Below, piece by piece: positions 34,912 to 43,954 of a stretch of DNA of 64,000 bases. The first letter of the stretch is position 1, and the number at the start of each line of letters is the position of its first letter. The position numbers and the translations under genes are program-made. The stretch is from Nitrososphaerota archaeon (GTDB taxonomy: Archaea > Thermoproteota > EX4484-205 > JAAOZP01), in the NCBI GenBank assembly GCA_011605725.1, contig JAAOZP010000017.1, forward strand, positions 192,001 through 256,000, given 5' to 3'. The notes under the pieces are model-generated. The model did not search any database. It was not told the origin of the DNA and worked only from the letters and a program-made list of their open reading frames with translations.

Positions 34912-34916
34912 GATAG

Positions 34917-34944
34917 CCCCTCTCCCCCCATCCCTCTTTTTCTC
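34917..34944 (+). terminator. Pyrimidine/T-tract terminator after the major pilin
   Basis: CCCCTCTCCCCCCATCCCTCTTTTTCTC just after the stop codon. Confidence 0.6.
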
Positions 34945-35083
34945 ACGTTCTTAAGCCGGTGGCCTAGTATTGAATGTTAAAACCGGGTTGGTTTGGAGCA
35001 TTCCGGACTCCCTATTAGGCGGTTTGGAAACAGTATTGTTTAACAAACTTTATAAAACTCTTCCCGCTTCGAATCATCGTCAA

Positions 35084-39485: not shown

Positions 39486-40366
39486 ACGAGCCTCTTTCTT
39501 CTAGCGGTGTTCGAAATAGTTTCGAACAATATTCTGACTGCTGCCGCTGCTGAGGCGCTTCCAGGGTCGAGCAGGGGGTTAAGCTCAACAAGGTCGAGCC
39601 CTACAAGCTTTTCGTTCACCGTGTTCTCCAGAAGGCTGAGAAGAATGCTGGTTGATACTCCACATGCCTCTGGATTAGCTACTCCAGGAGCGTAGGCAGG
39701 GTCTAGAACGTCAAGGTCTATGCTAACATAGGTGCTTCCCGCTTTATCAACAATGCTTCTCAGCATCACGCATGCTTCCTCAGGATTCCTGAGGATCTGT
39801 TTCGATGAAACGAAGGTTTCGCCGCTCGCGTACTCAACCTCCTCTCTGCAGGCTGCCCTGACGCCGACGTGCACGACTCTGCAAACCTCCTCCCTCACTC
39901 TTCTCATGACTGTAGCGTGGCTAACCTTAACATGCTCAGGATACTCATTCCTATAGTCGAAGTGAGCGTCGAAAGATATTATTGTCTCCGGCGTAAGGCC
40001 TCTCGCAGCCCCAAGGGTTATTGTGTGCTCTCCCCCGAGAAGAACAGGAGTCTTAGAGTCAGCATTGATCTCCCTGCATACTTTCTCAACCCTTTTCAAA
40101 ACCTCGTCGACGTTGAACGTTACTGAAACATCCCCCAGGTCTGAAACCCTAACATTCTCGAAGTCAACACTGTTTCCAAGGCTGATGGTTTCAGCCTCAG
40201 CTGAGAAATGCCTTATGCTGGCGGGCCCGAATCTTGAACCCGGCCTGAAGCTCGTCGTCCCGTCGAAAGGCACCCCTACGATGGCGAACCAGGACTCCTC
40301 ATAGCTATGCTTAATCCCGGAGAAGAAATACGGGTTTTCAACCAAGTATAGCTTAGCCTCGTCCAA
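39482..40366 (-). CDS. speB: Agmatinase
   Basis: PFDGTTSFRPGSRFGP, GGEHTIT, DAHFD, SIDLDVLDP. Confidence 0.9.
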   Translation of the reverse strand: MDEAKLYLVENPYFFSGIKHSYEESWFAIVGVPFDGTTSFRPGSRFGPASIRHFSAEAETISLGNSVDFENVRVSDLGDVSVTFNVDEVLKRVEKVCREINADSKTPVLLGGEHTITLGAARGLTPETIISFDAHFDYRNEYPEHVKVSHATVMRRVREEVCRVVHVGVRAACREEVEYASGETFVSSKQILRNPEEACVMLRSIVDKAGSTYVSIDLDVLDPAYAPGVANPEACGVSTSILLSLLENTVNEKLVGLDLVELNPLLDPGSASAAAAVRILFETISNTARRKRLV

Positions 40367-41714: not shown

Positions 41715-41872
41715 TCTCTAACTATTGGAAAAGGAGGTGTGAGAAAGGTTTAAGATAAAGTTTTCTCTTCACGTGTAAGCCGTGAGAGGCACTGGTCTAC
41801 TGCGTCTAGGAGTCGGCCACTGAACAACCGGGCGGCGTCCCGTTGGAAGTGTTGCTTAAAATGGTTGACAGC

Positions 41873-42532
41873 ATGGTGGAAACCGGGAGGTTCGACCTCC
41901 ACGTACACACTTTCTTCTCTAGGGACTCGCTCCTAGACCCGAGGCTGCTGCCCAAGGTGGCTGCTTCAAGAGGACTCGCCGGCTTGGCTGTGACTGACCA
42001 TAATTTTTTCGGAGCTCACAGGATGCTGGAGTCAAGCAGCCTCATAGTTGTACCAGGAATGGAGATAAGGACTAGCGCTGGGGATATAATAGTCCTCTTC
42101 ATACAGGAGCCGGTTCTGTCCAGAGATCCTCTCGAGGTTTATGAACTGGTTAAGAAGCAGGACGGCATACTGATTGCGGCGCATCCTTTCGGCTTCCCGA
42201 GGCTTAGCAGTATGATTGAGGAGTTTACACGGCTTCTAGACGGTGTTGAAGTGGTTAACTCCAGAAACCTTTTCAGAAGGCAGAACCAGAAGGCGCTTGA
42301 GCTTGCCAGGAGGCTTGGAAAGGCTGAGACAGGAGGGAGTGACGCTCACACTTTATACGAAGTCGGTAAAGCATATACTCTTGCAGCTGCTTCCAGCCTT
42401 GAGGAACTGCGTGCAGCGATTAGAAGCAGGATGACGAAGGGTTCAGGAGGCTTAAGCATCCCCCTGGTGCACTTGGCAAGCTTTTCAGCAAGCATTGTTC
42501 ATAAGCTAGCCCGCCGGCCTCCATTTTTCTAA
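41873..42532 (+). CDS. PHP-domain phosphoesterase
   Basis: DLHVHT, AVTDHN, PGMEI, AHPF, GGSDAH; start uncertain (41843/41861/41873). Confidence 0.9.
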   Translation: MVETGRFDLHVHTFFSRDSLLDPRLLPKVAASRGLAGLAVTDHNFFGAHRMLESSSLIVVPGMEIRTSAGDIIVLFIQEPVLSRDPLEVYELVKKQDGILIAAHPFGFPRLSSMIEEFTRLLDGVEVVNSRNLFRRQNQKALELARRLGKAETGGSDAHTLYEVGKAYTLAAASSLEELRAAIRSRMTKGSGGLSIPLVHLASFSASIVHKLARRPPFF

Positions 42533-42625
42533 TCGTCGCTCAACATGTTTGGCGAATACTGGTTTAAACACGTAGGGCTCAGCATCAACATTATAATCGA
42601 AACTGTTGAAGCGTTTTAAGTTTTG

Positions 42626-42648
42626 AAAAATAAAAAAAGGAGGAGGGG
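42626..42648 (-). terminator. C-rich plus T-tract terminator of the Lys-rich microprotein gene
   Basis: Minus strand CCCCTCCTCCTTTTTTTATTTTT beginning 14 nt after the TGA. Confidence 0.65.
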
Positions 42649-42661
42649 TTTAAAAGTGCGG

Positions 42662-42718
42662 TCAACACTTCTTAGTCTTCTTAGCCTTCTTCTTAGTTGC
42701 CTTCTTCTTAGCAGCCAT
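42662..42718 (-). CDS. 18-aa lysine-rich microprotein MAAKKKATKKKAKKTKKC
   Basis: ATG..TGA, 10 Lys all encoded by AAG, TATA-like box about 30 nt upstream, T-tract terminator downstream; below the ORF-track cutoff. Confidence 0.75.
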   Translation of the reverse strand: MAAKKKATKKKAKKTKKC

Positions 42719-42744
42719 CTTCAAGAAGAAGTTATGCAAGCATA

Positions 42745-42758
42745 CACTTAAACTTTTT
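42745..42758 (-). promoter_or_regulatory. BRE/TATA promoter of the microprotein gene
   Basis: Minus strand AAAAAGTTTAAGTG, with TTTAAG 29-34 nt upstream of the ATG. Confidence 0.6.
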
Positions 42759-42787
42759 GTTTTTTAACTTTTTAACCAGCTATTGAT

Positions 42788-43954
42788 TCAGCCGACTAGG
42801 CTGTCAAAGGTTTCTAGAAACTCTCCTTCCAATCCGACAGGTATCACTCCTGAAGCTGCAACACTGTGACCATCTCCAAACCCTCCGTGCCCAGCGCATG
42901 CTTCAGGAAGAATCCTCGATAATGGTGGCTTAACACCCTCCTCTATCATCTTTCTCAGTCTTAAAGGTGCTCTCGCAGACACTTTAACATAGTCTTTACG
43001 AAGCAGACCGTAGCCAGGTATTTCCCTCGGGATCCTCATGAAGCCAATCAAGTATTTACTGTCGTCAACAATCCTCTGATAGCTTAAGAAGGATGTGAAG
43101 CTTCCAAGAACTTTACTGCCCATTCCTTTGAAAAAACCTCCGGAGTCGAACCATTGCAGGCTCCTCTTCTCCCCCAGCCCCTTCCTGATTATCGTGGCTA
43201 GAAGAGCCTTGTTAGCCCTCCTCCTCTCCTCCTCAAGTTTCTCCGAGAAGCTAAGAACCTCCTGGTTGAAGCCCTTTAAACAGGCTTCAAGAGCCTTCTC
43301 CACACCCCCCTTGTAATATCCTACTGAGGCCAGTATAGTGAGGATCTGGGAGGCATTAACCCTTGAAAGGCCGAAGCCCTCGGCAACTATCTTGAAGTCT
43401 CTTCCCGACTGTTTCACAACACCCTCCTTCAAAGAATCTTCAAAGGCGATCTTGTTGAGGCCAGCTGCTTCCCCGGGTATTTCAACCGAGCCTATCACAG
43501 CCAGATGGGAAAGCCTGCTCAGGCTCCTATCAGCCATCTTGGCGAAAAGATAGGCGACTGTTGAGGCTGAAGCGTCTCTCTCACCAAGATAGCCGTAGAG
43601 CTCAGGATTCAGGTTTAGAACATTGTTTTTCCGGGAAGGCTTAGTATCGTGGTGGTCTAGGATAACCGCCAAGCATTCTTTCCCAATATTCTCCTCTATC
43701 TTCTCAACATGCGCTGAGCCGATGTCGGTGAAAACTGCCACAGGATACTTGGAGAGGGTTTCCACCAGGACCTCTGGGAAAAGCTTGTCTAGGCAGAGGG
43801 TGTTAATGTTGAAACCCATTTTCTCAAGAGCTGTTTTAACTATCGCCGCTGAGCAAACCCCATCGGCCTCGTCATGATGAATTAAAACAGCCTCACCCAC
43901 CCTGCGCCTAAGCTCTTCAACAGCCTTCACAAGGCTTGCTTCAAACTGTTCCAA
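42788..43954 (-). CDS. DHH-family phosphoesterase (RecJ/Cdc45-like)
   Basis: HHDEADG, TDIGS, ILDHH, NLNPE, KVSAR, GDGHSVAAS. Confidence 0.9.
   Translation of the reverse strand: MEQFEASLVKAVEELRRRVGEAVLIHHDEADGVCSAAIVKTALEKMGFNINTLCLDKLFPEVLVETLSKYPVAVFTDIGSAHVEKIEENIGKECLAVILDHHDTKPSRKNNVLNLNPELYGYLGERDASASTVAYLFAKMADRSLSRLSHLAVIGSVEIPGEAAGLNKIAFEDSLKEGVVKQSGRDFKIVAEGFGLSRVNASQILTILASVGYYKGGVEKALEACLKGFNQEVLSFSEKLEEERRRANKALLATIIRKGLGEKRSLQWFDSGGFFKGMGSKVLGSFTSFLSYQRIVDDSKYLIGFMRIPREIPGYGLLRKDYVKVSARAPLRLRKMIEEGVKPPLSRILPEACAGHGGFGDGHSVAASGVIPVGLEGEFLETFDSLVG

Follow-up and report, generated by a model that had tools for sequence, protein, structure and literature searches.

Between two convergent genes of an uncultured hot-spring archaeon there is a 255-nt gap that houses an extremely lysine-rich reading frame of only 18 codons, and the question it raises is whether this frame (hereafter the micro-ORF) is a real gene with its own transcription unit or a simple AAG microsatellite and, if it is a gene, what a peptide of this size and charge could do in the cell. 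The window analysed here, a stretch of 64,000 nucleotides, belongs to a metagenome-assembled genome of 2.2 Mb with roughly 49% GC. The neighbour on the upstream side, encoded on the same strand, is a DHH-domain, RecJ-family-like protein of 388 aa (42788..43954, minus strand; PF01368), whose best NCBIfam match, NF053576 (RecJ_archaeal, E 6.6e-51), stays under the curated cut-off of that model; on the downstream side lies the convergent gene for a PHP-domain metallohydrolase of 229 aa (41843..42532, plus strand; PF02811 and PF13263). Gene callers do not see microproteins of less than about 30 residues, and hardly any are known from uncultured archaea. An earlier, sequence-only reading of this DNA had expected gene callers to miss the micro-ORF, and the public contig of a close relative indeed carries no call between the DHH and PHP genes.

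The micro-ORF occupies 42662..42718 of the minus strand, with its ATG at 42718-42716, the Cys codon TGT at 42667-42665 and the TGA stop codon at 42664-42662. Its product is MAAKKKATKKKAKKTKKC, which contains 10 Lys, 4 Ala and 2 Thr, has no Asp or Glu, ends with a single Cys and carries a net charge of +10, in agreement with the ten lysines, the lack of acidic residues and the terminal Cys described earlier. This composition is extreme, and the peptide is the most lysine-dense stretch of the genome: no 18-residue stretch with at least 10 Lys was found in the called proteins (those of at least 120 aa were scanned), and nowhere else in the 2.2-Mb genome is there an intergenic ATG-initiated ORF that compares with the micro-ORF in length and Lys density. 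The word AAGAAGNNNAAGAAG, which reads AAG-AAG-x-AAG-AAG at the DNA level, occurs twice in the window, both times within the micro-ORF, against an expectation of 0.06 in shuffled sequences. Inside the ORF, Tandem Repeats Finder detected imperfect repeats with periods of 9 and 15 nt, corresponding to units of the Ala-Lys-Lys type, and no further copies of the micro-ORF were found elsewhere in the genome. All ten Lys codons of the window copy are AAG. The share of AAG among Lys codons is 56% genome-wide, rises to 79% where three or more Lys follow one another in called genes, and reaches 84% when summed over the orthologous micro-ORFs of the genus; codon use in the micro-ORF thus resembles that of translated Lys runs of the same genome, which is consistent with coding without being a proof of it. 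The AAG preference in Lys runs presumably serves to avoid slippery A-tracts.

Comparison with relatives answers the first part of the question. The orthologue of the DHH gene was located in 40 related genomes, and short basic ORFs, with or without a Cys, were sought at their loci. In all 17 species genomes of the genus, the micro-ORF is present in frame, immediately after the DHH gene and facing the PHP gene in convergent orientation, so that the synteny of both neighbours around it is complete; the neighbouring proteins themselves are 69-86% (DHH) and 64-86% (PHP) identical to those of the window across the genus. The gene is also present on seven further metagenome contigs of the genus type, together with its promoter, including the 23-nt block described below, and its neighbours. 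When a sequence pattern was searched for, each of the 16 other genus genomes had a single match, and reversed-pattern controls had none; the window copy itself was missed by this pattern, because it has a Thr at a position that had been fixed as Lys. The case that would have spoken for a plain AAG microsatellite, namely a frame not conserved in relatives, was thus checked, and the frame between the PHP and DHH genes turned out to be conserved.

The way in which these copies differ is as informative as what they share. The ATG is kept in 17/17 genomes, and the Cys codon with an immediately following stop in 16/17, the one exception (locus L010) having a Lys and then the stop, without a Cys. Among the genus species the stop codon may be TGA, TAA or TAG, while the Cys codon varies synonymously between TGT and TGC, the second codon (Ala) among GCT, GCC and GCA, and the Lys codons between AAG and AAA. 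The spacer residues interchange among Ala, Ser, Thr and Gly, with Ser codons drawn from both the TCN and the AGY families. Indels among the genus copies comprise whole codons throughout, a pattern that slippage on the internal 9- and 15-nt repeats could also yield without any selection at the protein level. The length of the peptide ranges from 15 to 23 residues, yet it always contains 10-12 Lys and has a net charge of +10 to +12. With its start, frame and stop conserved in the face of synonymous variation, the micro-ORF is almost certainly a protein-coding gene under purifying selection. What is selected is no exact sequence: it is an N-terminal Met-Ala-x-Lys-Lys-Lys, a total of 10-12 Lys with small spacers, and a C-terminal Cys.

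The micro-ORF also has a promoter of its own. Alignments of 17 and 14 genus loci revealed a block of 23 nt (42746..42768, minus strand) that consists of two tandem A-rich/TA units and is identical or nearly so across the genus, with flanks that cannot be aligned. Within it, a TATA element TTTAAG (42747..42752, minus strand), the first T of which lies 34 nt before the ATG, is abutted on its upstream side by a BRE-like AAAAAG (42753..42758, minus strand), the whole BRE/TATA stretch reading AAAAAGTTTAAG. We have compared it with a promoter model derived from the genome itself by an iterated weight matrix on 1029 upstream regions of its own genes, 642 of which built the consensus AAAAAGTTTAAATATT. 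The BRE-like element fits positions 1-6 of this consensus, and the promoter score of the micro-ORF stands at the 89th percentile of the 1029 gene upstream regions, a value reached by 0.3% of shuffles. Genome-wide, TATA-like hexamers are most frequent between 40 and 26 nt ahead of start codons, the TATA element of the micro-ORF sits at the modal distance for the genome, and the TATA-to-ATG spacing is kept at 32-36 nt in 17/17 relatives. The A-rich BRE and TTTAAG about 30 nt upstream that had been pointed out before are therefore real features, placed 34 nt from the start and in line with the genome consensus.

The position of AAAAAGTTTAAATATT at 40 to 26 nt before starts indicates that mRNAs in this genome are mostly leaderless; in a minority of genes, the start is preceded by a GGAGG or GGTGA at a distance of about 11-15 nt. 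An archaeal TATA box is located approximately 26-30 nt before the transcript start, so that a TATA element 34 nt before the ATG predicts transcription to begin about 4 nt before the start codon, and we infer a leaderless or near-leaderless mRNA for the micro-gene. Between the TATA element and this predicted start there is an inverted repeat, TATGC-TT-GCATA (42733..42744, minus strand). Arms of at least 5 nt are found in 13/17 relatives in two versions, TATGC..GCATA and ATGTT-N-AACAT, meaning that both arms have changed together, and the repeat may be a candidate operator for a dimeric regulator. Neither the promoter block nor the palindrome has a second occurrence in the genome, and a regulon sharing either of them was rejected on this ground.

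At the other end, a C-rich stretch past the stop codon is followed by a T7 run (42638-42632) and a T5 run (42630-42626), which together make up a terminator region at 42626..42661 of the minus strand. A T-run of at least 5 starts 3-25 nt past the stop in 17/17 relatives. A C-rich stretch and then a T5 run also follow the pilin gene (about 34912-34945), a resemblance that the sequence-only reading had noticed; its claim of an independent transcription unit is likewise well supported, with a consensus promoter at modal distance on one side and a T-tract found in every relative on the other. Other transcripts may pass through this region as well. On the plus strand (42533-42770), no T-run of at least 5 follows the PHP gene until the T5 and T6 runs as which the promoter block reads on that strand, and the PHP transcript may run antisense over the micro-ORF; the invariant block may then be dual-purpose, a promoter on the minus strand and a terminator on the plus strand. 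There is also no T-run between the DHH stop and the micro-ORF, and DHH read-through transcripts may cover it too.

Other readings of the same DNA were tried and rejected. A Leu/Ser-rich antisense frame has no conserved start, at least five relatives being without any, the Arg-rich +1 sense frame also lacks a conserved start, and more generally start codons are not conserved in the other two sense frames or in any antisense frame. Read-through or a C-terminal extension of the DHH gene is not compatible with the gap between the two, which contains stops and across the relatives falls in all three frame phases, and the DHH orthologues outside the genus have neither a Lys-rich tail nor a micro-ORF downstream. 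A structured RNA was discarded on an RNAalifold consensus of -0.1 kcal/mol (14 loci), and searches at the locus gave no Rfam match and no tRNA. Elsewhere in the window, at 40178-40213 (plus strand), in or antisense to the agmatinase gene, there is a match to the C/D-box sRNA family sR60 (Rfam) with 20.8 bits against a gathering threshold of 50 and an E-value of 0.2, which is probably due to chance.

How far does the gene extend beyond the genus? The collection searched has no more than 26 species genomes for the class of the source genome. Pattern and profile searches did not find the micro-ORF in the nine genomes that represent the three sister families within the order, and it did not turn up downstream of the DHH orthologues there either. 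A wider survey with a peptide HMM on 150 genomes of the phylum and with three DNA patterns on 400 + 105 genomes, all insensitive to diverged forms, gave one credible look-alike among the 400 sampled phylum genomes, in genome G377 (locus L061 1501-1554; contig 17, 6920-6973). It has 17 residues, a Met-Ala start, ten Lys, Gly/Ser/Ala spacers and a terminal Cys, the last of which was required by the pattern that found it, and a TATA-like box lies about 41 nt upstream. G377 belongs to a distant family of the phylum, and the look-alike has different neighbours, with a xylose-isomerase-like TIM-barrel gene on one side and an acetoacetate-decarboxylase-like gene on the other; after it comes a stretch of about 850 nt that has no long ORF. 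The same pattern returned no counterpart in relatives of G377 from its own order (105 genomes), and the look-alike can be read as homology or as convergence. Matches to KKxKKC-stop without an N-terminal requirement appeared at about the rate of the controls and were dismissed as chance or as lying inside larger genes. Diverged homologues may exist outside the genus. As it was not found in the sister families or in about 500 other phylum genomes, the one look-alike aside, the micro-ORF is no core part of a universal machine; its product is a new, narrowly distributed family from one genus of uncultured hot-spring Thermoproteota, within the known class of tiny polybasic proteins.

The gene is surrounded by genes for the RecJ-like DHH, PHP and HtrA proteins and by pdaD. 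The DHH and PHP genes are genomic context, and adjacency to a RecJ-like nuclease does not by itself speak for a shared function. Because pdaD and speB lie close by in the window, a genetically encoded polyamine mimic had been suggested. This idea gained no specific support: the whole block is collinear in relatives across the genus, and the genome also has genes for spermidine synthase (speE) and SAM decarboxylase (speH), which with pdaD and speB complete the spermidine route and leave no polyamine gap for the peptide to fill. The speE and speH genes are adjacent to each other (contig 7, 43150-44161), about 190 kb from pdaD/speB on the same contig. As to chromatin, the genome encodes an ordinary tail-less histone of 76 aa and two Alba proteins, so that there is no obvious chromatin-protein gap either.

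Databases gave no homologue for the peptide. Its orthologues of 21-23 residues have no match in Pfam or NCBIfam even at E = 10, and a peptide profile found none among PDB chains, solved ribosome chains included. The earlier suggestion of an eL41-like protein thus gains nothing from the Pfam, NCBIfam or PDB searches; the eL41 model itself (PF05162) has no match in the genome at E-values up to 10, a result obtained with a short model that a control showed to be insensitive. As to the description as histone-H1-tail-like, the Lys/Ala/Ser/Thr-rich composition without acidic residues is that of an H1 tail, and the likeness is one of composition only, as linker histone H1 combines a winged-helix domain with basic tails and the peptide, having 18 residues and no Pfam match, is too short to contain any globular domain.

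Several known systems nevertheless help to frame what such a peptide may do. The ribosomal protein eL41/eS32, with 25 residues, is present in eukaryotes and archaea and, like mycobacterial bL37 and like bS22, is tiny, extremely basic, fold-less, often unannotated and in electrostatic contact with rRNA. The product of the micro-ORF is likewise a tiny, extremely basic peptide from a small, overlooked gene; these proteins, however, are Arg/Lys-rich and of fixed length with conserved positions, whereas the peptide here has Lys only, varies in length, ends with Cys and is limited to one genus. H1 tails are disordered and act through charge, with an acid-free make-up of Lys, Ala, Ser and Thr. The peptide shares its composition, and presumably disorder, with the H1 C-terminal tail and with the repeats of bacterial Hc1 and of the AlgP type, but has no globular domain and no Pro, and stands alone with 18 residues. 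Protamines and the adenovirus mu peptide are very short polycations that condense nucleic acid, and mammalian protamines are cross-linked through Cys disulfides. They resemble the peptide in being short polycations, but are Arg-rich, eukaryotic or viral and show no homology. Finally, a Lys run directly before a C-terminal Cys is also found in the polybasic, lipidated-Cys anchor of the K-Ras4B type; the peptide here lacks a CAAX box and an attached protein, no modifying enzyme was identified for it, and this likeness is a pure analogy.

We consider the micro-ORF very probably a real translated gene, judging from the comparative evidence above, and the reading as a whole, a genuine, independently transcribed micro-gene whose product acts as a polycation, has in our estimate a probability of roughly 0.5. 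In this reading, the consensus BRE/TATA would drive a leaderless or near-leaderless mRNA of about 90-100 nt that ends at the oligo-T terminator and would be translated into the 18-residue peptide. Methionine aminopeptidase removes the initiator Met from a Met-Ala start, and a mature form of 17 residues is predicted. A peptide of 18 residues with 56% Lys should not be able to fold alone and would be a diffusible polycation looking for a polyanion. The most plausible polyanion would be nucleic acid (rRNA or the ribosome, or DNA), about ten backbone charges of which could be neutralised by each peptide. Selection on the charge dose and not on the identity of the spacers points to electrostatic binding of a polyanion, and the specific claim that the peptide works by charge-based binding to nucleic acid comes, in our judgement, close to an even chance while staying tentative. 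Two peptides could be joined by a disulfide between their terminal thiols into a dimer with a charge of about +20, or the thiol could make a metal or covalent link. Dimerisation through the Cys is plausible because this residue is kept in 16/17 genomes, and its near-invariance suggests a second function for the peptide, be it a disulfide dimer, metal binding or covalent attachment. A bolder proposal, which we regard as unlikely, sees in the peptide a gene-encoded oligolysine cofactor, a polyamine-like counter-ion or "tail in trans" of about ten positive charges that at high temperature would keep nucleic acid protected or compacted, with the thiol switching it by redox between a monomer and a cross-linking dimer, or serving as a lipid tether.

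Of the other explanations, the one nearest to nucleic-acid binding, and in fact a special case of it, is a lineage-specific small ribosomal protein threaded into rRNA in the manner of eL41/eS32 or bL37/bS22. In its favour, the gene stands alone behind a strong consensus promoter and its product is tiny and extremely basic, and there is a precedent in aS33 and aS34 of Saccharolobus, lineage-restricted archaeal ribosomal proteins that had been unannotated until they were recently found by cryo-EM (PMC11698992). The length range of 15-23 residues and the freely changing spacers would, however, be unusual for fixed rRNA contacts, and with no match to a solved ribosome chain, Pfam or NCBIfam and a distribution of one genus plus one look-alike, we think this reading improbable. 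The conserved Cys could alternatively be the centre of the function, in a metal-handling peptide or a lipid-modified or conjugated polybasic membrane anchor that would not be a ligand of nucleic acid. The Cys is last in 16/17 genus members that were found without requiring it, and in the G377 look-alike, where it was required; there is, however, a single Cys and no cluster in the window peptide, one genus member has none, and no transporter, prenyltransferase or CAAX-type signal was found near the micro-ORF. To our knowledge, protein prenylation of the K-Ras4B kind is not established in archaea. We regard a device of this type as quite improbable.

The polycation reading also has to be weighed against explanations in which the peptide does not matter or is a different one. 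If the ORF were incidental to a purine-rich small RNA, to a 3' region or terminator common to the convergent DHH and PHP genes, or to an AAG microsatellite, the imperfect 9- and 15-nt repeats would be readily understood, the plus-strand T5 and T6 of the promoter block could end plus-strand transcripts, and antisense overlap would be possible given the stretch free of T-runs from the PHP stop to the ORF. An RNA or DNA element, however, would not be expected to keep an ATG, a Cys codon and an adjoining stop while the stop switches and the Cys and Ala codons vary synonymously, nor does a lack of conserved secondary structure and of an Rfam match, together with a promoter at the modal distance from the ATG, speak for it, and we hold a non-coding origin to be very unlikely. 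Translation of the Lys run could itself be the function, through Lys-tRNA sensing or ribosome stalling with the peptide as a by-product, an idea that dense Lys codons and the leaderless layout would accommodate. It meets the difficulty that no same-strand gene lies downstream before the terminator, the next gene being convergent, that neither the conserved Cys nor the Lys count is needed for stalling, and that AAG is preferred over slippery AAA; the odds are heavily against it. Least probable of all, and barely worth entertaining, is a type-I-toxin-like, Leu/Ser-rich hydrophobic peptide from the plus strand, starting with a GTG at 42657 after GGAGGAGGGG. The source genome does have a Shine-Dalgarno-like GGAGG 8 nt before this in-frame GTG, and the frame is open in all relatives, which follows from the fact that Lys, Ala, Thr and Ser codons give no stops when read in antisense. 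The start, however, is missing in at least five relatives, the antisense product of Ser-rich relatives contains Arg and loses its hydrophobicity, and the GGAGG is the mere complement of the C-rich terminator.

Taken together, promoter, start, stop, terminal Cys and Lys count conserved across a genus amount to unusually clean comparative evidence for a gene of this size. Should the peptide bind nucleic acid or the ribosome, it would be an added component of archaeal chromatin or translation; constraint on the charge dose over the sequence would also make it a simple, synthesisable model for short polycations in thermophiles. If the oligolysine-cofactor proposal were true, it would represent a class of small cellular polycation that is made by the ribosome and not by polyamine enzymes. 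The peptide is cheap to synthesise, and the main hypotheses are directly testable without culturing the organism.

A scan of metagenomes returned other Lys-rich, Cys-ending peptides in unrelated contexts, with a pattern that demanded Lys-Cys-stop and thus has no bearing on any enrichment of Cys. Two groundwater contigs of 38-40% GC (L083 and L135) carry on their minus strand a Lys-rich ORF of 23 codons that ends with Cys-Cys-Gly-Lys-Cys and starts at reverse-complement positions 1932 and 4094, respectively; about 35 nt past it, a second ORF, which like the first opens with Met-Ala-Lys-Lys-Lys-Lys, continues for about 140 residues. Six freshwater contigs (L100, L108, L120, L128, L130 and L144), in a context unrelated to that of the archaeal gene, share the same Lys/Cys-rich ORF of 17 codons with five Cys, which lies in a region dense in other Lys-rich short ORFs.
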